DNA from: a virus
Strand: one strand, 5' to 3'
DNA: 64,000 nt
Virus record (IMG/VR): IMGVR_UViG_3300042890_002721
Location: 8,647-72,646 of that record
The translations under genes were made by a program, and so were the position numbers. Positions 1,579 through 45,299 of this stretch are shown here, piece after piece. Positions within the stretch are counted from its first letter, which is position 1, and each line of letters starts with the position of its first letter. Below the pieces are notes generated by a model. That model saw only the letters and a program-made list of their open reading frames with translations. It made no database searches and had not been told where the DNA came from.

Positions 1579-2103
1579 TTATAACTTAGTAAACCAAGCT
1601 TTAAATTTAGTACTAGTATCATATAAGTTTACAAATTCAACACCAATAATTTGTGAACCACTAGCAAAACCTAAACCTAATTGGTCAGTACTACAGTGCA
1701 TGTAGTTAACTGGCATAAGTGGTTTAAATGTTAATGTCATATTATTTTGTGCTGAATATAATGTATATGAAGCACTGTTTGTTGTATCTGAACCAATATA
1801 ATATTTGATATTAGTTACAAAGTGTAATGTATCATACATTATTGTTGTCCCAAAACCGTTCATAATCTTTGTTAATAACCAAGTTGTACCAACTAAATCA
1901 TTTGTTTGTGTTCCACTAGTCCAATTTGGTAATGTACCACCATTGGTATATTGATTTTGCCAATTAGTAGTGTCAACACTTGTTGGTGGAACATACGGTG
2001 CTGGGTTATTTTTTTTACAACCAGTAACTGTAAACATTATTAACACTGTTGTTATAATACCTAACAAAAAAGCAATGTTTTTATAAATTTTAAAATCTTT
2101 CAT
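1579..2103 (-). CDS. Predicted lipoprotein
   Basis: Basic N-terminus, hydrophobic stretch, lipobox VTGC followed by KK. Confidence 0.7.
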   Translation of the reverse strand: MKDFKIYKNIAFLLGIITTVLIMFTVTGCKKNNPAPYVPPTSVDTTNWQNQYTNGGTLPNWTSGTQTNDLVGTTWLLTKIMNGFGTTIMYDTLHFVTNIKYYIGSDTTNSASYTLYSAQNNMTLTFKPLMPVNYMHCSTDQLGLGFASGSQIIGVEFVNLYDTSTKFKAWFTKL

Positions 2104-2119
2104 ATTTTCTTATTTTTAA

Positions 2120-2150
2120 CAAAGGTAAACATAATATTTTGATTTACCAA
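2120..2150 (-). promoter_or_regulatory. Bacteroidota-type promoter (TTGG...TACCTTTG)
   Basis: TAnnTTTG at 2120-2127 upstream of the lipoprotein gene. Confidence 0.55.
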
Positions 2151-2151
2151 A

Positions 2152-2760
2152 TTATTTAACAAAATTTTTCACATATTGTTTCCTATGGTATTTATTCGAA
2201 CTATATTCTTTTAATGCTGAGATATGGTCTGGTGTTAAATAACCCTTATTTGATGACCAATTATATTCTGGGTGTAGTTCATGTAATTTAACCATATAAG
2301 CATCACGTCTAACCTTAGCTACTATAGCTGCCGCTGCAATGCATATGTATGTATCATCACCTTTAGGTACTAAATCAACACTAGCATTATTCACACCATT
2401 ATATGGTTCCCAAACTGTACCATCAACAAGAATGTATTCTGGTTTAACCGCTAATTCATCTAAACATTTTCGCATAGACTTAAATGTAGCTGGATTTATA
2501 CCTAACTCATCAATACTAGTAACAGACCCAGCGTTACATGTAATGGCTATAGCGTTAGTTAATATTAATTCGTAGGCATTGAGTCTCTGTTTCTCTGAAA
2601 GCTTCTTAGAGTCTCTTATAAGCTCTGATTTGAAACCTTTAGGCATAATGACCGCAGCCGTAACTACTGGACCAGCACCACAACCCCTACCAACTTCATC
2701 TAAACCAACTACATATTGGTATTCACCGAAGTCTTCAAGAATCTTTTTCTGTTTTGCCAT
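2152..2760 (-). CDS. rnhB: Ribonuclease HII
   Basis: GLDEVGRG..AGPVV, DSKKL, LVDG, KGD..IAAAAIVAKV.RD, NKGY, HR motifs. Confidence 0.93.
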   Translation of the reverse strand: MAKQKKILEDFGEYQYVVGLDEVGRGCGAGPVVTAAVIMPKGFKSELIRDSKKLSEKQRLNAYELILTNAIAITCNAGSVTSIDELGINPATFKSMRKCLDELAVKPEYILVDGTVWEPYNGVNNASVDLVPKGDDTYICIAAAAIVAKVRRDAYMVKLHELHPEYNWSSNKGYLTPDHISALKEYSSNKYHRKQYVKNFVK

Positions 2761-3001
2761 TTTTTATTTTTTTAAAGTAATCGTATAAAGCCCACATTGA
2801 GATAAGTGTCCAAGTAGCTTCAAGAATTATAAATGGTTCATATTGAATCATACAAGATGCTGTGCATGCAAGAATACCACCAATGATATTAAGAATAATA
2901 TATAATGGATGGTCATTATCTAATCTATCTAGAATATTTAAGAGGAAAGCGAATAGCATTAAAACCACACCAGCTGAACCTATCATATCGCTTATTGTCA
3001 T
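2735..3001 (-). CDS. Small 3-TM membrane protein (CBU_0592-like)
   Basis: IG..G..L.L.AF, Y..LN..G and LE..W pattern. Confidence 0.6.
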   Translation of the reverse strand: MTISDMIGSAGVVLMLFAFLLNILDRLDNDHPLYIILNIIGGILACTASCMIQYEPFIILEATWTLISMWALYDYFKKIKNGKTEKDS

Positions 3002-3014
3002 AATAATTTTTTAA

Positions 3015-3046
3015 CAAATGTACGATATATATTTTAATTAAACAAA
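3015..3046 (-). promoter_or_regulatory. Bacteroidota-type promoter (TTTG...TACATTTG)
   Basis: TAnnTTTG at 3015-3022, TTTG at 3043-3046. Confidence 0.55.
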
Positions 3047-3277
3047 TTATTCTTGTGGTTTTTTACTTATTTTAACTAAAATACCATGTATAACCACTTC
3101 AAATTCATCTGTTGGGTCGAATTGTAAGTATTGTGGGTTAGTTTTATAAAAAACTTCTTTATTTAATTTATTATGAGTATCTTCATCCAATACATAATGC
3201 ATTGTTAAACCCAATTTATTTATTTTTTCGCTTACAGCCATTTCAGTAATGGTTTGTATTAATTCATCACATGTCAT
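3047..3277 (-). CDS. Hypothetical protein
   Basis: ORF in tightly packed operon. Confidence 0.65.
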   Translation of the reverse strand: MTCDELIQTITEMAVSEKINKLGLTMHYVLDEDTHNKLNKEVFYKTNPQYLQFDPTDEFEVVIHGILVKISKKPQE

Positions 3278-3278
3278 A

Positions 3279-3500
3279 TTAAAACTTTGTAAAAATATTT
3301 TTAATTATTATGGCTAATTTTTGGTACCAAGTTTTTTTTATAATTTTAACCTTACTAGGATTTGATTTAATATCTTTACCTAAACCAGTTTTTAATTCAT
3401 TTATAAATGTAACTTTTACTTTAGCAGTTTTATACATATCTAAAAGTTTTTCTCTTTCAGCACCTTCAATTTCTATATCTATAATGTTTTTTTTACTCAT
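3279..3500 (-). CDS. Hypothetical protein
   Basis: ORF overlapping the NUDIX gene end; start chosen at MSKK. Confidence 0.6.
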   Translation of the reverse strand: MSKKNIIDIEIEGAEREKLLDMYKTAKVKVTFINELKTGLGKDIKSNPSKVKIIKKTWYQKLAIIIKNIFTKF

Positions 3501-3933
3501 ATATATTGGCAATTTTTTCAGCTAAGCCTTTGTATAATGGGCTTGGTAGATTATCTTTTGAAAACCAACCGTAGTTTAAGTTCTCATGGTCCAATATAGG
3601 TTTAAATTCTCGATTAGTAAACCCTTCAAAGTAATGAAATTCTCTATTTTTATTAGGTATGTGTTCAATATTTATTTTTTTGAATGTAATATCATTTGTT
3701 TTAATAAATAATTCCTCATATATTTCTCGTTTGATTCCATCGATTATATTTTCACCTTCATCAATACCACCAGACATAAGAGACCATATTGGTGTTGTAT
3801 CATTTCGTAATAATAGAAAAACTCTATCAGTTGTTTCACATTTAAGTAAAACACCACCAATTACTTGTTTTTCATCATTATCATTCATTAGTCTTTGGTT
3901 TAATACTTCCCTTATATATTTTTTAGTTATCAT
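3493..3933 (-). CDS. NUDIX hydrolase
   Basis: Nudix box GGIDEGENIIDGIKREIYEE; E..YGWF...LPSPL. Confidence 0.85.
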   Translation of the reverse strand: MITKKYIREVLNQRLMNDNDEKQVIGGVLLKCETTDRVFLLLRNDTTPIWSLMSGGIDEGENIIDGIKREIYEELFIKTNDITFKKINIEHIPNKNREFHYFEGFTNREFKPILDHENLNYGWFSKDNLPSPLYKGLAEKIANIYE

Positions 3934-5422: not shown

Positions 5423-5436
5423 AGGTTATAATTTAG

Positions 5437-5649
5437 TTATAAAGTTATACCAGTGAATATCACTGTTATAACATATGAAATAGCTATACTTAATAAAATT
5501 AATGATGTATTTGAAACTCTGTATTTGTTTGGTTCTTCTTCTGTGGATGTCAATAAAGCTTGAATAAAGTAATAACCATGTCTTATCGTTTTTAACAACG
5601 ACATAAAAAACAATATCATCAATATCTTATTAAGTATAACTACAATCAT
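5437..5649 (-). CDS. Small 2-TM membrane protein
   Basis: Two hydrophobic helices. Confidence 0.6.
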   Translation of the reverse strand: MIVVILNKILMILFFMSLLKTIRHGYYFIQALLTSTEEEPNKYRVSNTSLILLSIAISYVITVIFTGITL

Positions 5650-5660
5650 ATTTTTTATTA

Positions 5661-5840
5661 TTATGCTTCTTTTTTATTTTTGTTAGAAACTTCGATACGA
5701 AGTGCTTGAGCAGTTGTTTTAATCTCTTGTAAACCTTTTCTAAGTCTTACACCAGCAGCTTTATTATCTTTTTCGTAAAATTTAATTGCATCTTCTTCTA
5801 AAGAAGCAATAAGTGTTTTTAATTCATTAAAATTCTCCAT
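5661..5840 (-). CDS. Histone H1-like (Hc1 family) protein of Bacteroidota type
   Basis: D..KFY.K.NKAAG.R.RK.LQE.K..AQ..R motif. Confidence 0.8.
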   Translation of the reverse strand: MENFNELKTLIASLEEDAIKFYEKDNKAAGVRLRKGLQEIKTTAQALRIEVSNKNKKEA

Positions 5841-6069
5841 TTTGTTCATTGTTTAAAATGTTGTTATTGTTATTGATTGAAAACATAGATGTAAATTTAA
5901 CTATGCTAGCTTCAACCATCACCATCTTAGATAGTAATTTTTTTATTTTTTTTGTTTTTTCATTGACACCTAGGTTGGAGTTAATAGTTGATTCCAATTC
6001 ATCTTCTAATTTTAACACATCAGAATTTAAATCCATCATCACTATTTTAAAAAGTCTTTCTCCATCCAT
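5827..6069 (-). CDS. Hypothetical protein
   Basis: ORF in operon, coiled-coil character. Confidence 0.6.
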   Translation of the reverse strand: MDGERLFKIVMMDLNSDVLKLEDELESTINSNLGVNEKTKKIKKLLSKMVMVEASIVKFTSMFSINNNNNILNNEQNGEF

Positions 6070-6120
6070 ATTTTAAAACTACTACATTATTATTAAAAAT
6101 AAATACTAAAAACCTTTTTT

Positions 6121-6591
6121 TTAGATTATTTTCAATGATTTCTCAAAAATTCTGTAAATTTCAATTAATGTATCCATATCGGCATTGGTTTTAACCCTAT
6201 TATAATCAAAAATATTATCCCATAAAGATAAGACGTTTTTACCAGAATTTTCAAATATTACTTTATCTGTTGACGTATAGAATACTTCTAGCATAAATTC
6301 TAAGAAATAATTATATAGCTTAATATTTTGAAATATAATACCTTCAGTGATGAAATTGGTTATGTTGGTATCCCAACACCATTTAAAATGATTTTCTTGG
6401 TCATCTATGTTGGTAACGTCATCACCCATGTAAGTATCAAATGTAAGCATTAATAATGATTGCACAAAATCATTATAAAGCTCACATTTCTCATACTTTA
6501 TATTATTAGCACCATAAATAATTATGATACTTTCTTTACTCATTGGTGTGTTGATATAATCCAAAAAATTAATTCTATTTTTATTATCCAT
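6121..6591 (-). CDS. Hypothetical phage protein
   Basis: 156 aa ORF. Confidence 0.7.
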   Translation of the reverse strand: MDNKNRINFLDYINTPMSKESIIIIYGANNIKYEKCELYNDFVQSLLMLTFDTYMGDDVTNIDDQENHFKWCWDTNITNFITEGIIFQNIKLYNYFLEFMLEVFYTSTDKVIFENSGKNVLSLWDNIFDYNRVKTNADMDTLIEIYRIFEKSLKII

Positions 6592-6636
6592 TAATATTTT
6601 TCTAATAATATAATACCATTATTAGAAAAATAAATA

Positions 6637-6762
6637 TTATTTTATATCATTTGATTCTATTAGTGTATAAGTAAATGAATTACCATGAATCTTAGCAGAC
6701 TTTTTAACTATCTTCATGAATTCATCAAAATCTTTAACCCTCTTAAAAACTTGACACCCTTC
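6637..6762 (-). pseudogene. Stranded duplicate 3' end of the L,D-transpeptidase-like gene (7326-7925)
   Basis: Reads EGCQVFKRVKDFDEFMKIVKKSAKIHGNSFTYTLIESNDIK*; the expressed end reads EGCLVFKRVKDFDEFMKIVKKAAKIHGNSFTLTLINSNDVKH*. Confidence 0.93.
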
Positions 6763-7342
6763 ACGTAGCATCTTCAATTATATATCTTCTTTTTAATTTA
6801 TAAGTATTTTTACACATTCGTATATTACTAGGTTTAGCATTAAGACCTATTGCACAATCTTTAGAGTTATTAAAAAAATAAATTTCACCAGTTTGTGTGT
6901 CAGTAACTTTTAATGGTACTTTACTATTTGAATCACTTTGTTTCTTTTTAAAAGAATCATTGACAAATTTACCACCATAGTTAGGATTATTAACACCTTT
7001 ATTAGCTTTAGAAATTTTTAAAATTATTTCACACCTATTTGGATGGTTAGAAATAGTATCACCACCATCACCACCATTTGTCATATTAATCAAACTTCCG
7101 TTATTAATTTTACGACCAATACGATTAATCCAATATATTTCTCTTTCTAATGATTCAATATTAGTTAACCCATCTTCCAATATTATAATATCATACCCAT
7201 ATTTATTTACAATACGATGCCAATATTTAGAACGACCATGTGTACTAACACATCTATCACCAAAACCTTTACCAACATAAAAAACAACATTTGTTGCTGT
7301 ATTTATATGTGCATATACATAATATTTAGTGTTTAACATCAT
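6761..7342 (-). mobile_element. GIY-YIG homing endonuclease with NUMOD3-like region
   Basis: YYVY....FYVGKG, R, E..WI, L.N.T.GGDGG; flanked by the duplicated host 3' end. Confidence 0.88.
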
Positions 7343-7925
7343 TACTATTAATTAAAGTTAGTGTAAATGAATTACCATGAATCTTTGCTGCTTTCTTAAC
7401 TATTTTCATGAACTCATCAAAATCTTTAACCCTCTTAAAAACTAAACAACCTTCTGACCAGTTTTCAACCCAAGTTGAATCTTTACCAGCTTTATGGATA
7501 TTGATACCGAATACACCTTCATCAATCTTTGTTTCATCAAATACTAAATCTTTATTTGGGTCACGATAAACCTTTACCGATTTTGCTTGTTTTAAGGCCT
7601 CGTACTTACCTTGGTGAAGACCTAACGCATGTGAACCTCTATATTGTCCTTCAACAAGTCTAGCAACACCTTTAGCGTTGTGATATTCCATTACACCTTT
7701 CTTACCTGGTTCTGTTGTGTTCATCCATTCTTTATAAACCCAATTACCAGTCTCATCTTTATATGATATTGTAATCATATCATCAAATACGTTTGTTACT
7801 TTATTTGCAGTTGATGAGTTTCTAACACCTACGATGTTTACATCATAAGATTTATTTTTTATGTCATTAAAATAGACATAACCTTTTGAAGACAATGCCG
7901 CTTCAATTTGTTCTCTTGTATACAT
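7326..7925 (-). CDS. L,D-transpeptidase (YkuD)-like peptidoglycan enzyme
   Basis: GINIH.AG...WSEGC catalytic His/Cys motif; adjacent to lysozyme. Confidence 0.65.
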   Translation of the reverse strand: MYTREQIEAALSSKGYVYFNDIKNKSYDVNIVGVRNSSTANKVTNVFDDMITISYKDETGNWVYKEWMNTTEPGKKGVMEYHNAKGVARLVEGQYRGSHALGLHQGKYEALKQAKSVKVYRDPNKDLVFDETKIDEGVFGINIHKAGKDSTWVENWSEGCLVFKRVKDFDEFMKIVKKAAKIHGNSFTLTLINSNDVKH

Positions 7926-22613: not shown

Positions 22614-23396
22614 TTAAGCGTTTTTCATTATGTTATAGTGGTGCATTTCAATAAGTTTTTTAGCTTCGTGTTTTAAATACATTATTTGAATCTTTTCGAA
22701 TGACATTTTCTCTTTATCCCAATAACCAACACATATTTGACGACATTTACGATTTGGGTGCTCTAATTCGTACATATAAGCGTACACAGATAACTGTAAT
22801 GTATAAATTGACCATTGACATGCTTGTAAGTGGTCAAATGGTTTAAAAAGTGTCTGATAACCAAATTCATTGAAGAAGTTAAATACTCTATTTGTTTTCC
22901 AATCCCATACATCAAAGAAAATTGGGTCTATATCTATTATTAAATCCGACATACCAGCTAACTCATATTCTTCAGAAAAAAGGATTCTTTCTGGCCACAT
23001 AGCAATACCTTCATTAATCTTCAATGCTTCATAACCTTCAATAACTTTTTGTTCAAATAACCCATCTTCTGACTCATCTGGAAAATACCATTTATTAGCT
23101 AATAAATAACGCTCAACTATATCATGGACTTTTGACCCATATATATTAGCATCATCATTTAATTTTTGCCAAAAATCAAGTATTTCTTGTTGTGACAAAC
23201 CAACGTAACGTTCTTGTTTTGCGTTATCTAATTGATTAAATATTGCCAATGAAACAGATTCAGAATCAAAATGAGGTTCAATGGATGAAAGTGTCGTAGT
23301 TACCGACTTATATGTTTTACCAGTTTCCCTATGATGATATTTATGTTCTATTGGTTCAAGGTAAACTGGACCAACCCATAATTTCGCTTTACTCAT
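22614..23396 (-). CDS. PD-(D/E)XK exonuclease (RecB/lambda-exo-like)
   Basis: SVTT, G...H...E, AG..DL, DWKT, Y.LQLS.Y. Confidence 0.85.
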   Translation of the reverse strand: MSKAKLWVGPVYLEPIEHKYHHRETGKTYKSVTTTLSSIEPHFDSESVSLAIFNQLDNAKQERYVGLSQQEILDFWQKLNDDANIYGSKVHDIVERYLLANKWYFPDESEDGLFEQKVIEGYEALKINEGIAMWPERILFSEEYELAGMSDLIIDIDPIFFDVWDWKTNRVFNFFNEFGYQTLFKPFDHLQACQWSIYTLQLSVYAYMYELEHPNRKCRQICVGYWDKEKMSFEKIQIMYLKHEAKKLIEMHHYNIMKNA

Positions 23397-23413
23397 TATT
23401 TTTTTTTTTATTA

Positions 23414-23453
23414 CAAATATACCATTTTTTTAACTTACATGCAAGTATTTATC
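23414..23453. promoter_or_regulatory. Back-to-back divergent promoters: minus CTTGCA-N18-TATATTTG, plus TATTTAT
   Basis: Both motif classes occur in the 70 bp divergent intergenic region. Confidence 0.55.
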
Positions 23454-23466
23454 TATAAAATATTAT

Positions 23467-24633
23467 ATGGTAAATAGTAATATGAAAAATTTTATAAAAC
23501 AAAAATTAAACGAAGCGTTATTGAAAGAGAAATTAATGCTTAAAGATTGGGATTTATATATTCAATTGGTAGCTAAGGCTTATGCTGAAGCACCAGACTT
23601 CGATGCTAGTGTTGTAAACGCTTGGAATGCTCTTAATCAATCTAATTATACATTATTTAATAGAATCTTATCAAAGGTTAATTTAATCTTCATAACTTCA
23701 GATAAGAATAAAGTTGGTTCTATTGAAATAAATGGTAAACTTTATAAAGTTAAATTAGCAGAACTTGGTGATGAGTATAATACTCAAAGTGAGATGAAAA
23801 ATTCATTCAATGAAACTGGTATACTTAAAATTAGTATGGATTATTCTGAACACCCTATATTAAGTGTTAAAGATAATATTGTATTTAGAAGTGTTCATGA
23901 TTACATTGCTCATATATTAGGTAATCATGATTTTGGTGCTAAGGGTGAAATAGCTTGTTATAATTTACACGCTAAAATGGCACCTAATGCAGCAATACCA
24001 GCGTTGTTTACTGAAGTGGTTGGACAAGCATCAACAACAATAGTAACTAATTCTTACCCTAAACAAAAAATAGCTATATTAAAAGGTTTTGATTACACAA
24101 GGGTAGGTCTAATTGATGATGATAATTATGTGATTGTTGATAAGGTTTTAGTTCCTAAATCACAAGCTGAAAATCCAATTATAAGTAAACCAATCGATAG
24201 AACTGAACCAAGTGTTGTTCCACAAAAACAAGAATTTGAAGAACCTTCATTAACTGAGTATTATGATGATTTTGATTATGATGATATGGATTTTTTTGAA
24301 CCAAAGAAAGCTAAGAAATCCGATAAGGTTACTTTTATGGCTAAATTACCAGATGTGATTAGATTATACAGAATACTTGTTGCTGATTCAATAGAAGATA
24401 TCGATACAACATTCTTAGGTTATCATTATTCAATGGATAAAAATAATCTATTAAGAACACACAGCTTTTTAAAAGGTAAAAAATACTTCTTGGCGACTGT
24501 AGATGCTAAAAAATCTTTGGTGGATATAAAAACTACTATGGATAATAATGCATTATATCCTAATGAAAAAGAAATAACCCTTAAAAATAAAGGTAGAGGT
24601 GTTGATGTTATATCTATTGAACCGTTGAATTAA
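23467..24633 (+). CDS. Two-domain protein: HDxxxH domain plus ADP-ribosyltransferase-like C-terminus
   Basis: FRSVHDYIAH..F...GE....H...ALFTEV.GQ; C-terminal LYR...HYS...NEKEI (R-S-E). Confidence 0.55.
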   Translation: MVNSNMKNFIKQKLNEALLKEKLMLKDWDLYIQLVAKAYAEAPDFDASVVNAWNALNQSNYTLFNRILSKVNLIFITSDKNKVGSIEINGKLYKVKLAELGDEYNTQSEMKNSFNETGILKISMDYSEHPILSVKDNIVFRSVHDYIAHILGNHDFGAKGEIACYNLHAKMAPNAAIPALFTEVVGQASTTIVTNSYPKQKIAILKGFDYTRVGLIDDDNYVIVDKVLVPKSQAENPIISKPIDRTEPSVVPQKQEFEEPSLTEYYDDFDYDDMDFFEPKKAKKSDKVTFMAKLPDVIRLYRILVADSIEDIDTTFLGYHYSMDKNNLLRTHSFLKGKKYFLATVDAKKSLVDIKTTMDNNALYPNEKEITLKNKGRGVDVISIEPLN

Positions 24634-24736
24634 CTATATTCATTATAATTTAATTTTCTGGATGTTCTAAGTAAAGCAACTACACCCTTAGACCCATATT
24701 GTTCAAACAATTTAGATGGGTCATAACCTTCTGGTG
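24630..24736 (-). pseudogene. Stranded duplicate 3' end of the DNA primase gene
   Basis: Reads PEGYDPSKLFEQYGSKGVVALLRTSRKLNYNEYS*; the expressed end reads PEGYDVSLINQVYGSKGVIKLLRTTRKLKYDELN*. Confidence 0.92.
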
Positions 24737-24777
24737 ACTTTTAAGTAAATTATATGTATTTATATTAAAACATATAA

Positions 24778-25347
24778 ATGCCTTATAAGAACCCAGAAGA
24801 TAAAAAAGCACATAACAAAAAACGTTATGAAAATAATAAAGAAAAATTAATTTTACAAAATAAAGAAAATAAAAATAAAAAAATTAATAATAAAAAATAT
24901 CGAGATAAAAATAAAGAAAAAATTAATGAAAACCAAAAAATATACGCATTAAATAATAAAGAGAAAATTAATACATATAAAAGAGAATACGAAAAAAATA
25001 GAATGGAGATTGACCCATTATTTAAAATGATTAAAAACATTAGAAACTTAATTGGTGTTTCAATAAAAAGACAAGGGTTCGATAAAAACTCAAAAACTAT
25101 TACCATACTTGGTTGCTCATTTAATGAATTCAAGTCATATCTAGAATCAAAGTTTGAAACATGGATGGATTGGGGTAATAAAGGTAAATATAATGGTGAA
25201 TTAAACCATGGTTGGGATATAGACCATATTATACCAATATCTTCAGCTATAACTGAAGAAGATGTGATTAGATTGAATCACTATACGAATCTTCAACCAT
25301 TGTGTAGTAAAATAAATAGAGATATTAAAAAGGATAACTTAATTTAA
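24778..25347 (+). mobile_element. HNH homing endonuclease, antisense to primase
   Basis: LGCS...K.YLE..F...M.W.N.G; W.IDHIIP.S....LNHYTNLQPLC...N; own CTTTT-N14-TATTTATA promoter at 24738-24764. Confidence 0.88.
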
Positions 25348-26295
25348 CTCATCATATTTTAACTTTCTTGTTGTTCTAAGCAATTTAATAACACCTTTTG
25401 ACCCATATACTTGATTTATTAAACTAACATCATACCCTTCTGGTGGGATACATATTCTAATTCTATCGTATAAATCACCAAAATTTAATTGTTTGTATAA
25501 GTGTATCGCATCTTTTAGTGCATCATCATCTAATAACACCACAATATTAGATGATGATTTATCATAAATCATTTCTAACAAGATTGGTGATATGTATTTA
25601 CCTAACATTGGTATTGAATTCGGTACTACTATATGGTCAGTAACACCTTCAACAAGATATATTGTAGCATCCCAATTAATTTTAGACTCATTGAAAATTA
25701 TTTCTTGTTTTTCAACATCTGGATTTAAATATTTTAATTTGGTTTTCTCTTTTGCAAACCATCTAGCGATAAAATAATTTAATTTACCTTCACTATCATA
25801 AGATGGGATAATAATTCTATTAAAATGTTTACCCTTGATAGTATAACCTATATCAAATTCTTTGATTATATCATCTGTAATACCACGTTCTCTTAGATAT
25901 GTCATGGCCATATCATACTTAAAATTTTTGGATGTGGATTCGGATAACTTTTTATAACTTTCTGGTAATTCAACAATAACTTCTTTACGTTCTTTACCAA
26001 CCATGGTGTCAGCATCTGGTTTTAATAGTAAGTAATCACGTAAATTTTTTTGTGAACCGTATTTTTTGATTAGTTTGGTAACTGGCCCTTGCATGTTGTT
26101 TACCTCACCACAAGACCAACAGTGAAAAACACTTCTATTATAGTTTATTTCTAAGTTACCTTTACCATCACCTTCGAACATATTTTTCTCATACGAACAC
26201 GCTGGACAATCAAAAGAGATTTGTCCAGTATCTTCATTGTGTTTTCTGTTTTCACCTAGAAAACCTTCGAGTATATCTACTAATAATACTGACAT
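25339..26295 (-). CDS. DNA primase (zinc ribbon plus TOPRIM)
   Basis: CPAC...HCWSC, YLRERGI, RIIIP, KYLN, LVEG..D, LDDDA. Confidence 0.9.
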   Translation of the reverse strand: MSVLLVDILEGFLGENRKHNEDTGQISFDCPACSYEKNMFEGDGKGNLEINYNRSVFHCWSCGEVNNMQGPVTKLIKKYGSQKNLRDYLLLKPDADTMVGKERKEVIVELPESYKKLSESTSKNFKYDMAMTYLRERGITDDIIKEFDIGYTIKGKHFNRIIIPSYDSEGKLNYFIARWFAKEKTKLKYLNPDVEKQEIIFNESKINWDATIYLVEGVTDHIVVPNSIPMLGKYISPILLEMIYDKSSSNIVVLLDDDALKDAIHLYKQLNFGDLYDRIRICIPPEGYDVSLINQVYGSKGVIKLLRTTRKLKYDELN

Positions 26296-26337
26296 ACCGC
26301 AAAATTACTAATTTATTATTGATTTTACAACTTTTTA

Positions 26338-26589
26338 TTAGAATTTTTTTAAAATAAAAGATTTAACCAATAAATTTATGGTTGTACGTTTGTCTGAATA
26401 ATACTTTGAATTATTGGTTGCAATGTATTTCTTTCTAACCATATCAAAAATATCTAGTATTGTTTGATTCCTTAATTCTAATGTGTAATTTAACTCAAAA
26501 TATGTAATGTGAAAATCAACAACTGATTTGACAATAATCAAATCTTCATCAATTGTATTATCAATTAATTTATTTGTTTCACTTTCCAT
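26338..26589 (-). CDS. Hypothetical protein
   Basis: 83 aa ORF. Confidence 0.55.
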   Translation of the reverse strand: MESETNKLIDNTIDEDLIIVKSVVDFHITYFELNYTLELRNQTILDIFDMVRKKYIATNNSKYYSDKRTTINLLVKSFILKKF

Positions 26590-27224
26590 AACTCATTTTT
26601 TTGCATATATCCAATACCAGCTACATACGCATCAGAAGTATCAAATGTTTCTTTTTTGAGTTTGTTTTTCTTATCGTAAAACCAAGCTACTTGTGGTTCT
26701 AATTCAGCAACCTTTTCCCATAACACATATTTCTTATCAACATCAAAAGAATAATCACCAAATAATACTGGTGTATTTTTAGCAATGACTTTTTCAGTTA
26801 ATGGTGTACCATCTTTTTTAAATTTTCTAATTGCCATTAATTCTGGGAATGCATATTTACGTGCATCATATGATGAAATAAAATCTGGAACAACACCAAC
26901 TGTATCGTAAACAGATTTTGATATCATACCATTAAAACGTAAAAGAGTTGCAATAGTATACACATTATTTGATTGTAATAATGGTTCTTCAATAACAACT
27001 TTAGTAATACCAAAGTCACTATAATTAGCTAAAAATTCTTGTTCAAATATTTCAACCTTACGGAACAATTCTTCCATCTTACTTTGTGGTTGTGGTTTAA
27101 CTTTTGGTGATACATGGTGTAATAATTTTAATTCACCATGGTCACCCATATCTTGGAATAACGCAATACCTATGCAACTTGTTGACACATCCAATGCTAA
27201 TAAAAATTCTGGTTCTTTTGACAT
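26565..27224 (-). CDS. RuvC-like Holliday junction resolvase
   Basis: LALDVST..IG, VVIEEP, L.RF.G, D.SDA RNase H-fold acidic residues. Confidence 0.75.
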   Translation of the reverse strand: MSKEPEFLLALDVSTSCIGIALFQDMGDHGELKLLHHVSPKVKPQPQSKMEELFRKVEIFEQEFLANYSDFGITKVVIEEPLLQSNNVYTIATLLRFNGMISKSVYDTVGVVPDFISSYDARKYAFPELMAIRKFKKDGTPLTEKVIAKNTPVLFGDYSFDVDKKYVLWEKVAELEPQVAWFYDKKNKLKKETFDTSDAYVAGIGYMQKNELWKVKQIN

Positions 27225-28489: not shown

Positions 28490-30637
28490 TTAAAAATCCA
28501 TACTAAGTTCAATTGTTATTGTGTTTGATGCAAGAGTGATTGGTGTACTTACTTTACCAACACATACTAGATTTTTATCAGTATCATAAATACCAACTTC
28601 ACTAATCTTAATATTAGGTGGGTTAGTTGACATATCTTTACTTCTAGTTGGATTTGTAGTAGAGTTAAATGTTGATGAATTTACATTTACATTAAAAATT
28701 GTTTTATATATTGTAGCACCAATGTATGTATTTAAGTTTCCATAAAATAATCTTTCATCACCAAATTGTAATGCATCTGGTGTCATATTAGCAGCTAAAT
28801 TTAATAAACTGATAAGGTCAAAAGTAGTTGATGTCGCACCATTTATCATGTCTAAAACAAAACCAGTTGTTGATGGTACTTGACCTTCAAGTAATTTAGG
28901 GTCAATAGTTTCACCAGAAACACCAGTAATAGCTGTTGAGGTTAAATCAACTTGTTTCCATGAACCAGCATCTGGTCTAGTTGTTGAGTCTGGAATTATT
29001 TGGTATAATAATTTAAATTTCTTAGCGTAAAAACCGTAACCATCATATGTAGCCGATTCATATTTACGCATAAATGGTAATAAATCAGTTGAATTGATTT
29101 TAAATGCTACATCCTTAGCAGTATTTGATTCGTTTGTTAATTTTACATATTTCTGACAAGGCATACTAGAAGTTAAACCAGTTCCTATTTCATTTTCAAG
29201 GCTATAAGTTAAATAGATTGTACTGTTTATAGGTAAAATACCAGTAGAAGTACCACCAGAAGGTGAAGAAATCGTTGCAGATAATTCTGGAAGTGTCCAA
29301 TTTCTATTTGATTTGTAAGATGTAGCAGCCACTATCTCATCATCGTGTAAAACAATAGTTTTTAATTGTGGATATACTCTACCAACAACCATTGGTGTTG
29401 CTGAATTTGAAAGATATGAAGAATCCTCATATAAATCCATGTATTCAATATCACTAGTACCAATATATTGTGTCAGACCACTCGCTGTAAATTTCATACC
29501 CATTGTAGTACCACTTTCAGTTGCGTAAGCACTTCTATGATACATAAGGTCTGGCATAACAATACTAACCGTTTTACCATTTTGTGTATCTACATAGAAA
29601 AATTCACCATATAGGTTAGAAATAGTGTTATTAGTATAATGAATGATTGACACTGATTTACTAATATCATCTGGATAACTAATCCCAGGTCCATTACAAC
29701 TAAAAGATAATGTGGTAGCAGTGCTTTGACATAAATATTCTAAGTATGGGTTTTTCTCACCCAAATAAGTATAAGAACCAAATTTAGTGTAATTTTCATA
29801 CAATTTAGTTTTTGTTAAACCAGTTACACCAGCTAAATCTTCACACCAAACATTATTCATATTCCAAACTGGTACATCATGACATGTAATGTTTGAAGCT
29901 GAATCGAATGAAAGTGTTCCAGAATCCCAATATGCAGTTGTGTTTCCAGTAGCTATCGTATCATATACTTCACCACCTCTATAAACAAATACTTGTGAAT
30001 TACCAGTGAAACTAGAATAATTAGGTAAATTTCTATCGATAGTAATGTTATACATATCAATAATATCTTGTATTTTAAACCATAGATTTGGTAACGGTCT
30101 AGTATTCTCATCTGGTATTATAGTTCCAGAATAATCATTAGCTACCTTAATCAAAACTATATCACCAATTGTAAATGCCGATGTTGGTCCAATATTTAAA
30201 TTTGTTGTTCCATCTAATATTAAATTACTTATTAAATTAGTGAAAGCAACATAAGTTTCAGTAGATTTTGTTGTATAATTACCACCAGAATAAGTAAAAA
30301 AACCTCTTTCTTCAGCTTGATTATTTACAACAGCTTTTATAACATTTAAGTTAGTGTTAGTTAAATCTTGATAAGGTGTTGCTGCATTACTTGGAGTAAT
30401 ATACGATTTAAAATTTGGTTGTCTATCTAATGGTCTTAGTATTTTACTAGTTTCACTAAGTGTAGTATCACCAACATTAATTGCTGCATCTACGATAGCT
30501 TCTCTATTATAATTAAGTTCAGAATCACCGATAGCCCAATATGTAAAATTAAGTTTTCCTTGTGCTAACATTTCACGCCCAGTCTGAGTTAATTTAATAC
30601 TAACAAATGGATTTGTATTTTTTATTATATATGACAT
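28490..30637 (-). CDS. Virion structural (baseplate/tail) protein whose 5' end is duplicated upstream of the adjacent nuclease
   Basis: KLT..GRE.LA, WAIGDSE, ISEVGIYD....LV..GK. Confidence 0.7.
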   Translation of the reverse strand: MSYIIKNTNPFVSIKLTQTGREMLAQGKLNFTYWAIGDSELNYNREAIVDAAINVGDTTLSETSKILRPLDRQPNFKSYITPSNAATPYQDLTNTNLNVIKAVVNNQAEERGFFTYSGGNYTTKSTETYVAFTNLISNLILDGTTNLNIGPTSAFTIGDIVLIKVANDYSGTIIPDENTRPLPNLWFKIQDIIDMYNITIDRNLPNYSSFTGNSQVFVYRGGEVYDTIATGNTTAYWDSGTLSFDSASNITCHDVPVWNMNNVWCEDLAGVTGLTKTKLYENYTKFGSYTYLGEKNPYLEYLCQSTATTLSFSCNGPGISYPDDISKSVSIIHYTNNTISNLYGEFFYVDTQNGKTVSIVMPDLMYHRSAYATESGTTMGMKFTASGLTQYIGTSDIEYMDLYEDSSYLSNSATPMVVGRVYPQLKTIVLHDDEIVAATSYKSNRNWTLPELSATISSPSGGTSTGILPINSTIYLTYSLENEIGTGLTSSMPCQKYVKLTNESNTAKDVAFKINSTDLLPFMRKYESATYDGYGFYAKKFKLLYQIIPDSTTRPDAGSWKQVDLTSTAITGVSGETIDPKLLEGQVPSTTGFVLDMINGATSTTFDLISLLNLAANMTPDALQFGDERLFYGNLNTYIGATIYKTIFNVNVNSSTFNSTTNPTRSKDMSTNPPNIKISEVGIYDTDKNLVCVGKVSTPITLASNTITIELSMDF

Positions 30638-31512
30638 AAGTTTTCTTTTAATTTATTTTTTATTTTTTCTTTATATGAAATTCTAATTAATTTTATCTTA
30701 TTTTCAAGACAAAACTTATTTTTTATATTATCTTTTTTTTCTTGGTCAATTAAACCATTAACACCACCCCATCTATCAATTATTTCAAAATGTTGTCTAC
30801 CATCATATTCAATACATATATCCAACTCTGGGAGGTAAAAATCAAATGGTAATGGGTATTTATCCCTACAACCACTAAAAACATATTGTTGTATGTGTTT
30901 AATTTTATAATCTTCTAAAATAACCCTTATCTCACGCTCACCTTTTGATTCTTTACATAATAAACAACCATGACCTTTAATATGTTTATCTGAAGATTGT
31001 TCAAATTCACCATGGATAGGACAAATTATTTTTATCTTTTTAAACGAACCTTTATAATTCACTAATGAATAATCATATTTATTACCGTGTTTTTCTTTAA
31101 CTTTATTAATATATTCTTCACTGTTTAATTGTCTACCAGAACACTTTAAACAACCATGACCCTTTAAATGACTATTTGGTTCTTGTTCAAACGTGCCATG
31201 AACTGAGCATATTATTTTAACTTTTGTTTTATTATTTTTGTAGTCAACTAAAGAATAATCGTATTTGTTGTTATGTAAATTAACTGATTCTTTTATAAAA
31301 GATTCGGTTGTTTTATTAACACCAGAACACTTTAAACAACCATAACCCCTTAAATGACTATTTGGTTCTTGTTCAAATATATCGTGAGTTGGACATGTTA
31401 TTTTTATTTTTGTTTTATTATTTTTGTAGTCAACTAAAGAATAATCGTATTTGTTGTTATGAATTAATTTTGCTTTTTCAATAAACGTTTCATTTGTTAA
31501 TTTTTTACTCAT
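30625..31512 (-). mobile_element. Zinc-finger-repeat (DUF723-like) plus Vsr/EDxHD-type endonuclease, putative homing endonuclease
   Basis: 3x KYDYSLV.Y...K.KI.C..H..FEQ....H..G.GC..C; ESKGE, LPFDFYLP, IEYDG.QH; likely true start MSKKLT at 31512. Confidence 0.85.
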
Positions 31513-31551
31513 ATTTTTATTTACTAATAAATATACACGAAACCAGAAAAG

Positions 31552-31626
31552 TGCTAATTGTTCACGACCTTTCTCCGTTAATTTAATACTAACGAATGGA
31601 TTTGTATTTTTTATAATGTAACTCAT
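31552..31626 (-). pseudogene. Stranded duplicate 5' end of gene 28490-30637, in frame with the nuclease
   Basis: MSYIIKNTNPFVSIKLTEKGREQLA versus expressed MSYIIKNTNPFVSIKLTQTGREMLA. Confidence 0.93.
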
Positions 31627-41767: not shown

Positions 41768-42649
41768 TTATTGTTTATTTAGTTTGTAAAATCCATTACC
41801 ATATCTACTTAATTCACCTAAGTTTTTGATTTCAGATAATCTTAAATGAATATCTAACACACTAGTCTGTCCTCTATCTATAAATACGTCACTTTGTACT
41901 TCTGGTGGATTAATTATACCAAATAAATACTCTTCTTTGGTAATAGCTGATAAAGATGTGTTTGTTTCATTCCATCCCTCACCAATATATTTAAATTGAG
42001 TAAGTGGAATTGTTGAATTGATGTTATCTATCACAACACTTCTAGTTTCCCCAGTATAATCTAAATACTGTAACCCATAAATTTGATTATTAGTCCCTAA
42101 ATTACTATCATTAGGTGTGTTAAATACATATATTCTAGGTTCCCCCATAGAAAAAACCCTATCAACACCAAGTATATTTAAATTATTATAGTTAATGTAG
42201 TCTTGAGAATTGGTATCGAACCCGATTCTATACTGATTATTTCTATCATAAGACTTAACATCTTCTAATTTACTATCAGTAAACCCAGTTATTAGTGAAT
42301 TACCATAAACATAATAGTCTGATTCAACACTACTAGGCATTCTTAATATGTTTTTATTAGTACTAGTGATTCCAGTCATCGGTTGAGATGTTGCACCAGT
42401 CATAAATGGGAATGTAAAACCACTAGAACTTAATTTATCTACCAATAAAGTATAATCTGGTGATGATGGGTTATTATTATCTTTAGGTATATATTCTATA
42501 TCAGTAAATAAACCCATATCATCAACAGTTTGTGTTAAATTAATTTTTAAATAGAATGTTGTAGCCGTAATAGTTCCCCACGTAGGGCTATTATAATTTC
42601 TATCAATACTATCCTCTAATAATATTTTTCTTTTAATAACCGAACTCAT
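41768..42649 (-). CDS. Virion structural protein whose 5' end is duplicated upstream of the adjacent nuclease
   Basis: 293 aa; KEEYLFG...PEVQSDVFIDRG; start overlaps the nuclease stop. Confidence 0.65.
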   Translation of the reverse strand: MSSVIKRKILLEDSIDRNYNSPTWGTITATTFYLKINLTQTVDDMGLFTDIEYIPKDNNNPSSPDYTLLVDKLSSSGFTFPFMTGATSQPMTGITSTNKNILRMPSSVESDYYVYGNSLITGFTDSKLEDVKSYDRNNQYRIGFDTNSQDYINYNNLNILGVDRVFSMGEPRIYVFNTPNDSNLGTNNQIYGLQYLDYTGETRSVVIDNINSTIPLTQFKYIGEGWNETNTSLSAITKEEYLFGIINPPEVQSDVFIDRGQTSVLDIHLRLSEIKNLGELSRYGNGFYKLNKQ

Positions 42650-43535
42650 TTTTTAATTTTTCATTTACATCTTCGTTATAATTAACTCTAATTAACCTAA
42701 TATCATTGTTTAAACAATAGTTTGTTTTTATTAAATCTGTTTTTTTGACTCTATTAAAACCTTTCTCACCACCAAATATGTCAATTGGTTTAAAATGTTG
42801 TATTCCATCATATTCAATACATACATTATAATCTGGTAGATAAAAATCAAAAGGTAATGGTCTAATATCTTTACAATCATTAAAATATTTTTGTTTTATG
42901 AATTTTAGGTTATTACTAATTAAATAATTTCGCACCACTTTTTCACCTTTTGATTCTTTACAAATTGGACAACCTTGTCCTAAAATATGGTTATTTGTTA
43001 ATTGATTGAATTCTCCGTGTTTTGGGCAAAGTATTTTAACCTTGGTTTTTGTATTGATGTAATCGACCAAAGAATAATCATATTTATCACCATGTTTTTC
43101 TTTTGCTTGTTTTATAAATTCATATAAATTTTTTCTTTTAACACCACCACAATGTTGACACCCACTACCTAAAAGATGGCTATGTGGTGTTTGTTCGAAT
43201 TCACCATGTATCGAACAAATTATTTTAACTTTTTCATCATATTTTTTATATTCAACCAAGGAATAATCAAAGATTCCATTATGTATATTCTTAGCTTTAT
43301 TTATGAATTTATTATTAGATAAAGTTTTATTTAACTTAAATTTTTCACGACCACAATATGGACAACCTTGATTATCTAGGTGACAGTTTGGTGTTTGTTC
43401 GAATTCACCATGTATCGAACAAATTATTTTAACCTTTGTTTTATTATTTTTATAGTCGACTAATGAATAATCATAAACGTTTCCATGTATCATCGCACAT
43501 TTTACAATAAATTCATTTGTTGTTAGTTTTCTCAT
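42633..43535 (-). mobile_element. Zinc-finger-repeat plus Vsr/EDxHD-type putative homing endonuclease
   Basis: 3 YDYS..C..H..H.GC..C repeats; ESKGE, PLPFDFYLP, IEYDGIQH; CTTTT-N13-TATTTATA at 43540-43565. Confidence 0.85.
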
Positions 43536-43595: not shown

Positions 43596-44410
43596 TATGT
43601 TGCTAATATTTGATATAAGTTAACCGTAGCGTTATTTGTTGAATAAGATACGTTATTTGAGTAAGTGTTATCAATTTCATAGTAGTACCCATTATTTTTC
43701 CTAACCAAAACATATCTAGTATATAATTTAGTTATCAATTGGTCTATAGGTAATGCGGCATTACTTACCATAAGGTTAGTTGACTTACCACTTTTAGCGT
43801 TTTTAAAAGATGCTCTCATATAAAGATACTTTGGTGCACCATTAATTACTAATTCATCTTTAAAATCATATATGTAATAACCTTGTGCATTACCTATAGG
43901 GTTAAGTATAGGGTTATCAACAGAGAATGTTAAAAATATCTGACTAGCTGGTATTGGTTGACCAACTGAAATATTTGGTCCACTAGTTTGGTATAAGTCC
44001 ATTGGTGTTAAGCTGGGGTATAATGTGATAAAACTGATTAAGTTTTGTATTAATGGGTTGTCACTATCGTAGAATGATAAATTAAGGAATGTTTGTTTGA
44101 ACTTTTCAGTTTCAAGTTTAATATCATCATCAGTGAAACCAATATCACCATAAGTTAATTTACCATCCAAATTAACAACATATGTAATCTTATCAACATG
44201 ATTACCTAGTAAATCTGTTGGTAAGAATCTAGTTTTTTCGTAATCAATAATTGGGTTTATTGCTTTTTCAATTTCAGTTTCAACAAATACTCGCTCAATT
44301 AATTCAGATTGGTCAACCAATTGGTATTCCATATTAATAGGAATATTAATAGTAGTTGCTGTAGCACCAGACATTAATGAAAGATTTATTTTATATTGAT
44401 TAACAAGCAT
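43595..44410 (-). CDS. Virion structural protein
   Basis: 271 aa; INPIIDYEK.RF, F..TFL.L.FYDS. Confidence 0.65.
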   Translation of the reverse strand: MLVNQYKINLSLMSGATATTINIPINMEYQLVDQSELIERVFVETEIEKAINPIIDYEKTRFLPTDLLGNHVDKITYVVNLDGKLTYGDIGFTDDDIKLETEKFKQTFLNLSFYDSDNPLIQNLISFITLYPSLTPMDLYQTSGPNISVGQPIPASQIFLTFSVDNPILNPIGNAQGYYIYDFKDELVINGAPKYLYMRASFKNAKSGKSTNLMVSNAALPIDQLITKLYTRYVLVRKNNGYYYEIDNTYSNNVSYSTNNATVNLYQILAT

Positions 44411-45299
44411 AATATTGTTTTAATTTATTAGTTATTTTTTCATCATATTTAATAATTATCAAATCAATTTGTTTATCAACACAATAATTTAATTTTATTC
44501 TATCTCTTTTTTGTTGTTGTTTAAAAACCTTAAAACCACCAAAATAATTGATTGGTTTGTAATGTTGTTCACCTTGGTACTCAATACATGTATTATAATC
44601 TGGTAAATAAAAGTCAAAAGGTAGTGGTCTAATATCTCTACAATCTGGGAATCTATGTTGTGGTAAGAAATTAATATTATTTTCTGTTAGGTATTTTCTT
44701 ATTTCAGATTCACCTTTAGACTCTTTACATATCGGGCAACCGCCACCATTTAAATGATGATTTGGTGATTTTTCAAACATTCCATGGATACTACATATTA
44801 TTTTAATTTTTTTATGCGTACTTTTATATTCTGTTAATTTATACGAATATAAAAGACCATATTTACTAATTGCTTCAGTGATAAAATCTTCAGTGGTTTT
44901 TCCTCTACCAAAACATCTACCACAACCACTACCATTTAAATGGTCATTTGGTTTTATTTCAAAAACACCATGTTTACTACAAATTATTTTAATTTTTGTT
45001 TTATTATTAAAATACTCAACTAGTGAGTAATCATATTTATCACCATATACTAAATTAGCCTTACAAATAAAATCCTCATTTACCATTCTTTGTTTTTCAC
45101 TTCTATTTTCAACACCACATTTATAACAACCACTACCATTTAAATGGCTATTTGGTGTTTGTTCAAAATTTTCATGTTCTGGACATGTTATTTTAATTTT
45201 ACTATATGAATTTACATAATTAGTTATAGAATAATCATATTTATCACCATGAATTGATTTAGCTTTAATTATGAATTCTTCAGTCGTTAATTTTTTCAT
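44400..45299 (-). mobile_element. Zinc-finger-repeat plus Vsr/EDxHD-type putative homing endonuclease
   Basis: 3 zinc repeats; ESKGE, PLPFDFYLP, IEYQGEQH; TATTTATA at 45316-45323. Confidence 0.85.

Follow-up and report, generated by a model that had tools for sequence, protein, structure and literature searches.

The locus described here lies in a 64,000-nucleotide (nt) stretch of viral DNA, hereafter the window, which is part of a 72,646-base IMG/VR record (IMGVR_UViG_3300042890_002721) with an estimated completeness of 21%. The window is about 28% G+C and its minus strand carries nearly all of its genes; its source is an uncultured freshwater (lake) phage, probably of the jumbo type judging by a record of 72.6 kb at this completeness. 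Between positions 23467 and 26295, the gene for a DnaG-type primase meets an HNH-like endonuclease gene on the opposite strand, beyond which lies a second copy of the primase 3' end that we call the stub. The features of this locus, including the 709-nt insertion that is the subject of this report, are listed below (ORF, open reading frame; aa, amino acids; X3, X4 and X7, sequencing runs introduced in the next section).

25339..26295, minus strand: DnaG-type primase (Zn-ribbon and TOPRIM), a 318-aa ORF as expressed here, with matches to PF08275, phrog_47 and PDB chains
25436..25445: copy 2 of a 10-nt repeat, CACCAGAAGG on the primase strand, in the Pro-Pro-Glu-Gly codons; placed by the joint 24726 to 25436
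25339..25435, minus strand: foreign 3' end that replaces the primase's own (YDVSLINQ...DELN, then stop), part of the insert and missing from HNH-less contigs
24778..25347, plus strand: HNH-like endonuclease ORF of 189 aa, antisense to the primase, phrog_1035
24737..24777, plus strand: 41-nt spacer or leader upstream of the HNH ORF, belonging to the insert and within the skipped 709 nt
24727..24736: copy 1 of the 10-nt repeat, the head of the stub, at the joint in HNH-less contigs
24630..24734, minus strand: stub, the native primase 3' end as translated (PEGYDPSK...NEYS, then stop), 34 codons plus stop, and the working C terminus in the HNH-less allele
24727..25435 (or 24737..25445, owing to the 10-nt repeat): 709-nt insert, defined by the joints in X3, X4 and X7
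23467..24633, plus strand: convergent 388-aa ORF, phrog_3170 (unknown function), in the flank outside the insert and also in HNH-less contigs

A preliminary description of this DNA had placed a primase stub past an HNH gene on the opposite strand, with a 9-nt overlap of the HNH and primase 3' ends, and the ORF coordinates and translations agree with it: the two ORFs converge and share positions 25339-25347. The primase as expressed ends PEGYDVSLINQVYGSKGVIKLLRTTRKLKYDELN before its stop, while positions 24630-24776 of the minus strand read KSPEGYDPSKLFEQYGSKGVVALLRTSRKLNYNEYS before a stop of their own, the stub being preceded by in-frame stops. The stops of the stub and of the 388-aa ORF overlap by 4 nt. 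The 10-nt repeat, ccttctggtg, occupies 24727-24736 and 25436-25445, and the G+C content of the insert is 23.4%, versus 29.0% for its flanks.

A precisely bounded insertion in the primase gene

The main finding of this study is that closely related phages carry the same primase gene without the HNH gene. Sequencing runs were ranked by their share of sampled words: two runs contained all of them, X3 to X6, from another study, contained 0.62-0.64, and X7, from a further study, contained 0.39. The assembled contigs of X3, X4 and X7, which are lake-water runs, and of X8 were compared with the window over 23000-27000; X3, X4 and X7 are not among the likely source runs of the window. Record 1 of X3 (3353 nt) covers 23000-24726 and 25436-26949, and record 12 of X4 (2423 nt) covers 24013-24726 and 25436-27000, with 2 other letters per piece, which makes the flanks about 99.9% identical to the window. 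In both, the joint from 24726 to 25436 skips exactly 709 nt (side 255, both 10, that is, ten letters fit either side). The contig of X7, from its separate study, joins 24728 to 25438 and skips 709 nt as well. No difference between the X3 contig and the window is listed for 25436-26295, the body of the primase.

The HNH-less gene deduced from these contigs is an intact 318-aa primase that has the stub as its tail, and the stub of the window is a single base, at 24634, away from this working tail. The same allele is present in the protein database as P0245, found on 4 contigs, whose residues 1-289 are identical to those of the window primase (P0242) and whose tail equals the stub apart from its last residue; its ending, NEYN, is consistent with the base difference at 24634. 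Precise presence or absence between near-identical genomes, a hallmark of homing genes, is therefore seen here both in contigs from two studies and in P0245. Because the HNH-less contigs run the primase straight into the stub, the stub is the native primase end, the expressed end came with the HNH gene, and the 709 nt, in which the expressed tail is joined by the HNH gene and the 41-nt leader, are an insert. The proposal in the preliminary description that the HNH gene is a mobile insertion and the stub a displaced native end is thereby supported. This is a real, recent and precisely bounded insertion of an endonuclease cassette that brings a surrogate primase tail.

Three other signals were handled separately. 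The joint seen in X8 (24736 to 25460) was set aside, as its 14 other letters denote a more distant relative, and so was the depth over the 3' part of the HNH gene (up to 124 in X4), which reflects numerous short contigs from other organisms. An assembly chimera was rejected, since two runs contain all the sampled words of 24000-26300, though both may be the source sample.

The catalytic motif and the two primase ends

The identity of the interrupted gene is well supported. The primase scores 35.7 bits against PF08275 (cut-off 26) and matches the DNA primase family phrog_47 with an E value of 8.9e-38, and its family profile aligns it to chains 4e2k, 5guj, 8gao and 8dvf, all deposited as DNA primase. 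Residues C30, C33, C59, C62, E216, D256, D258 and D289 are invariant (in 27 sequences for Asp289), and the gene thus combines the catalytic-core profile with the Cys4 zinc motif and the Glu, Asp-x-Asp and G-x-D-P TOPRIM motifs of a DnaG-type primase. At 318 aa its length matches that of its relatives (317-319 aa). The primase of the best cultured relative is less than 32% identical.

The insertion junction falls inside the TOPRIM P-x-G-x-D-P motif, directly after the Pro-Pro-Glu-Gly codons, and the insertion thus sits in conserved sequence of an essential gene, another hallmark of homing genes. The junction DNA, GAAGGTTATGACCCATC, is unchanged in two IMG/VR relatives (L001 and L003) and has 1 change each in two others (L002 and L004), in phages whose proteins are only about 70% identical. 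The family profile aligns PPEDYDPSKIFEKLG to LPSGMDPDEYIGKYG in chain 4e2k and IPDGLDPDDYIKKFG in chain 5guj, where the motif reads G-M-D-P-D and G-L-D-P-D, respectively. By eye, Asp-Pro stands at this position in 118 of the 120 best homologues, the exceptions being P0010 (Asp-Ala) and P0071 (Asp-Ile). The preliminary description was hence right that DnaG-type TOPRIM primases have a P.G.DP motif here and that the stub keeps the Pro while the expressed tail has Val.

The pairing of stub and tail was recovered by a self-tblastn search of the whole window (E 3.5e-8, with 21/32 residues identical), which argues that their likeness is not due to chance. The two ends are identical at 74/107 nt (69%), and 22 of 35 codons differ, 9 by synonymous and 13 by nonsynonymous changes. 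Identity going from the junction is 11/12 nt, then 19/36 and then 42/57, which places the peak of divergence in the twelve codons past the junction. The nearest relative of the expressed tail is P0071 (24/34 residues, 20 of the first 22 by eye, versus 21/34 to the stub), even though the body of P0071, a protein without close kin in the set, is only 69% identical to the window primase. The tail in the stub is nearest to the closest relatives of the window primase, P0001 to P0003, with 26/33 residues identical. Codon differences of this number, 9 of them synonymous, show the expressed tail to be an old, diverged and phylogenetically foreign copy from elsewhere, not a mutated native tail.

A module reading YD[VI]SLIN[QE] heads tails that otherwise differ in three primase backgrounds: the window primase P0242, P0243 and the P0071 cluster. 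Its spread over three backgrounds is what repeated co-conversion from one site would produce, and the foreign tail nearest P0071, together with this shared module, is what co-conversion of donor flanks, a further hallmark of homing genes, leaves behind. Every full-length protein of the P0071 cluster (7/7) has an Asp-Val or Asp-Ile tail, and every protein of the P0010 cluster (9/9) an Asp-Ala one; since these residues are fixed there, a residue other than Pro is tolerated. Asp-Val/Ile primases other than that of the window include P0243, P0248, P0249 and P0251. P0243, which belongs to the P0001 cluster and is 91% identical to the window primase, is a second Asp-Val allele, in a different but close background. 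Its tail, DVSLINEEYGTIGVVQLLRTTRKLNYSEL, matches its own background in the last 8 residues and may be a conversion patch.

Searches for further carriers of this tail gave little. A metagenome scan with patterns including YDVSLINQ and KGVIKLLR returned 6 loci, none with an Asp-Val or Asp-Ile tail (4 have Asp-Pro, 1 is cut before the tail and 1 is distant). Degenerate DNA patterns for the Asp-Val/Ile tail had 0 matches in viral and genome contigs, and a protein search with the tail matched P0004 only, blanks that do not show rarity.

A probable homing endonuclease and the competing explanations

The nuclease carried by the insert matches phrog_1035, annotated as endonuclease VII, with an E value of 1.9e-6. 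In 19 relatives, residues D147, D149, H150, N171 and N180 do not vary, and we take D149/H150, N171 and N180 to be the H-N-N motif; a conserved Asp-His...Asn...Asn/His pattern is the mark of the HNH superfamily. One listed relative, P0145, has a precomputed PF01844 assignment. Two relatives, P0122 and P0123, are 87% and 80% identical to the window protein. The family as a whole is vast, with 5733 proteins at E values of at most 1e-20, and its genomic contexts are varied. In one of these, L008 (1729-4285), whose primase is 47% identical, a 285-aa HNH relative with an N-terminal Cys-x-x-Cys pair lies antisense between a RuvC-like gene, whose 3' end it overlaps by 26 nt, and the primase; a stub beside it was looked for and not found. 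A promoter and terminator scan of 23300-26500 in the window gave 20 promoter-like sites, versus 24.9 expected from shuffles, and 0 terminators, and is uninformative on HNH expression; the promoter-like signal of the 41-nt spacer is likewise not above shuffles.

No intron or intein encloses the HNH gene, which forms an ORF of its own on the strand opposite the primase. An Rfam search of 23000-27000 found no intron family, its sole match being a chance snoRNA (E 0.78), and the primase ORF is complete and of normal length, features that do not fit a group I intron or intein with a resident endonuclease and that uphold the preliminary argument against a splicing intron.

We consider it probable that the insert is a free-standing HNH-type homing-endonuclease cassette, 709 nt long, lodged in the 3' end of the primase gene and carrying a surrogate gene end. 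The cassette consists of a divergent version of the final ~30 codons of the primase, stop codon included, an antisense HNH gene overlapping that stop by 9 nt and the 41-nt leader. Because it sits directly after the Pro-Pro-Glu-Gly codons, and supplies the tail itself, the primase remains full length (318 aa), the native last 34 codons persisting downstream as an unexpressed stub. In a mixed infection, the HNH enzyme would cut HNH-less (Asp-Pro) alleles at or near CACCAGAAGG/TTATGACCCATC, and repair of the break would copy the cassette from the HNH-bearing genome, with the primase body as one homology arm and the stub or native tail as the opposite arm. The HNH-bearing genome would be immune, since the insertion splits its site in two and its carried tail differs most just past the junction. 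The cleavage itself, its target specificity and the biased inheritance are steps that we infer.

Several points weigh against this reading. The evidence for the 709-nt skip consists of assembled contigs, not raw reads, and the HNH gene is linked to an Asp-Val tail in this single genome only. The HNH assignment is weak, drawing as it does on the PHROG match and the conserved D-H...N...N residues: PF01844 scores 16.8 bits (E 0.0074), below its cut-off of 21.4, and matches 1 of the 19 relatives at an E value of at most 0.01; an NCBIfam search with the ORF and a comparison of the family profile with PDB sequences gave no match. The AlphaFold model is unreliable in the catalytic part (predicted local distance difference test scores of 46-66 over residues 140-189), and Foldseek against the PDB gave nothing at an E value of at most 0.001. 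Furthermore, 23 of the 53 IMG/VR loci with HNH relatives share one position, a 14-nt overlap with the start of a co-oriented ORF of 457-588 aa (L006 to L047). In L006, the sole copy checked, this ORF encodes a portal protein (phrog_213, E 7.6e-61), and much of the HNH family may have a role other than homing or not be actively mobile. That the enzyme cuts the primase site is something we infer, and since the stub keeps the 10-mer and all the sequence to its right, the model needs a recognition site that reaches to the left of the 10-mer. The HNH-less allele might also, in principle, have arisen by precise deletion between the 10-nt repeats, as a secondary event.

Some of these points would favor a passive mosaic, in which the HNH gene and tail were acquired from another phage by illegitimate or microhomology recombination at the 10-nt repeat, without the primase being the target of the enzyme, and the nuclease serves packaging, degradation of host DNA or competition between phages. 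We regard this as quite unlikely. A direct repeat does border the insert, the fixed position of 23 of the 53 relatives is beside a portal-like gene, the HNH signature is weak, and the primase as its target is conjectural. However, such recombination does not account for a junction placed exactly in the sequence of a catalytic motif with conserved DNA, for a YD[VI]SLIN module in three primase backgrounds, for flanks free of other exchange (the X3 contig equals the window across 25436-26295), or for the duplicated ends of interrupted genes carried by three endonuclease genes of the window and by the L014 locus described below. Still less probable is the opposite direction, with the HNH-bearing state older, the HNH-less contigs as revertants by precise deletion between the 10-nt repeats and the stub as a spare end. 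The end points of such a deletion would fall on the direct repeat and its product is in frame, and the stub is intact over its 34 codons, one base from the working tail. Yet 7/7 relatives with readable downstream context (L001 to L004, which are 68-71% identical, and metagenome loci L082 to L084, only L084 having its complete downstream ORF set listed) have an Asp-Pro tail and lack an HNH gene past the stop of the primase. Asp-Pro tails like that of the stub are also borne by P0001 to P0003 and by 5 of the 8 proteins in the cluster at 90% identity or more, and of the two tails it is the expressed one that conflicts with the phylogeny. Insertion is, on these comparisons, the parsimonious direction, and deletions of this kind would still leave the original event an insertion.

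A narrower alternative concerns how immunity arises. The preliminary description held that the element imposed a non-consensus residue on an essential enzyme as the price of immunity, which amounts to a single Pro-to-Val change beside the catalytic Asp acting both as immunity determinant and as a functional cost to the primase. In favor of this, 118 of 120 homologues and two solved DnaG-type primases have the Pro, and the change is one codon from the junction, within the most diverged stretch. But the whole 34-codon tail was swapped, with differences at 22 of 35 codons of which 9 are synonymous, which is the mark of a foreign copy, not of a minimally mutated one; Asp-Val/Ile and Asp-Ala are fixed in the P0071 and P0010 clusters, and the insertion by itself splits the junction sequence and could alone confer immunity. 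We therefore find the single-residue explanation doubtful, and the claim of a price for immunity is not supported in that form.

Related arrangements and their significance

Duplicated gene ends beside nuclease genes also occur elsewhere in the window. At 6640-7454, on the minus strand, a 199-aa gene (7326..7925) ending EGCLVFKRVKDFDEFMKIVKKAAKIHGNSFTLTLINSNDVKH before its stop is followed by a co-oriented GIY-YIG homing-endonuclease ORF (6761..7342; phrog_314, E 5.7e-24) and by a stub, EGCQVFKRVKDFDEFMKIVKKSAKIHGNSFTYTLIESNDIK and a stop, at 6640..6762, the copies being 88% identical over 41 aa. At 30563-31626, also on the minus strand, the first 25 codons (MSYIIKNTNPFVSIKLTQTGREMLA) of a 715-aa ORF (28490..30637) recur, with 22/25 identical, at the start of a 333-aa endonuclease ORF (30625..31626), as if an endonuclease gene had been inserted after codon 25 together with a second copy of the 5' end. 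This ORF matches phrog_559 (E 1.6e-81) and phrog_9084, annotated as homing endonuclease, and has paralogues about 52% identical at 42633..43535 and 44400..45299. In another phage, L014 (positions 1756-3616 of a 320,934-base IMG/VR contig), an HNH relative 56% identical to that of the window (2857..3537, plus strand) is flanked on both sides by the initial ~24 codons of a gene of 269 aa (phrog_12094; duplicate E 1.45e-10). The working gene (1756..2565) and a stub of 31 aa (3521..3616) are both on the minus strand, the stub overlapping the HNH gene at its 3' end; this layout is a 5'-end version of the same design.

The neighborhood of the primase is variable in other ways. The slot between primase and exonuclease holds the convergent 388-aa ORF in the window, a convergent ORF of 174-178 aa in L001, L003 and L004 (4925-5458) and in L084 (756-1292), and is empty in L002. 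L004 also has a GIY-YIG-like ORF of 246 aa (2519-3259) upstream of a RuvC-like gene and, at 5423-7276, a 617-aa exonuclease ORF that by eye resembles the 260-283-aa exonuclease of other relatives with an intein-like insert.

Among the closest known systems are the free-standing homing endonucleases of T-even phages (SegF, SegG and MobE), which reportedly spread by "intronless homing", that is, by break repair with co-conversion of flanks. They share with the primase cassette a nuclease gene that is outside an intron or intein and adjoins an essential, replication-type gene in its resistant form. They are said, however, to lie between genes, whereas the cassette sits inside a coding sequence, antisense, with a substitute end and a stub; their nucleases are reportedly unrelated to the weakly recognizable HNH-like family found here. 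Endonucleases borne by introns and inteins of phage replication genes likewise enter conserved catalytic-site codons while the essential gene is kept. Unlike them, the cassette has no splicing element and its HNH gene is on the other strand, and it is the carried stop and tail that keep the gene whole.

A hybrid atp6 gene in Allomyces is said to offer a comparison outside phages. In fungal mitochondria, the excerpted text of one report describes free-standing LAGLIDADG genes with partial duplications of the adjacent atp6 and cox1 that create pseudogenes (PMC7487136). The likeness, as far as that text goes, is in a free endonuclease gene with a partial duplicate of its neighbor, one copy working and the other a pseudogene; the differences are an organelle instead of a phage, a LAGLIDADG instead of an HNH-like enzyme, and identities of 90-100% that apply to duplicated endonuclease genes, not to the atp6 and cox1 pieces, whereas the gene tails here are 69% identical in DNA (PMC7487136). 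In the ICP1 vibriophages, homing endonuclease genes of the HNH and T5orf172 families, with repeat-rich DNA-binding parts, lie at recombination boundaries near essential genes (PMC10448857). They resemble our case in marking boundaries of exchange between related phages; in the excerpted text of that report, however, "duplication" refers to repeats inside endonuclease genes, not to ends of target genes, and the word "primase" occurs 0 times (PMC10448857). A partial duplication of nad2 has also been described, which the excerpted text does not tie to an endonuclease (PMC5626475). A limited literature search found no phage description of the present architecture, which does not show that none exists.

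The insertion in the primase gene captures a homing-type invasion nearly in the act, with occupied and empty alleles about 0.1% apart in their flanks, and at this distance the insert can be delimited with single-base precision and the likely region of cleavage narrowed down to the 10-nt repeat in the catalytic motif. It provides, from an uncultured phage, a directly testable pair of enzyme and target, and it shows an endonuclease gene entering a coding sequence without splicing, by means of a spare gene end. A broader possibility, which we put forward tentatively and rate somewhat below even, is that freshwater jumbo-type phages harbor a general and as yet unnamed mode of homing by "terminus-replacement cassettes". 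Endonucleases of different kinds (HNH-like, GIY-YIG and a multi-repeat type with HNH or homing PHROG matches) would enter essential coding sequences without intron or intein by bringing a substitute for the 5' or 3' end. The native end thus displaced would mark, as a scar, where cleavage took place and would also act as the second homology arm, allowing the cassette to pass to the next genome, and the carried tail—here YD[VI]SLIN—would be the immunity determinant. The interest of the primase cassette would be all the greater if its architecture proved to be such a general mode in these phages. Together with the two further cases in the window and L014, it suggests that orphan copies of gene ends beside nuclease genes are a signature by which recent homing events and their targets may be recognized in metagenomes, and such copies also explain some of the spurious small ORFs and mosaic C termini in phage annotation.

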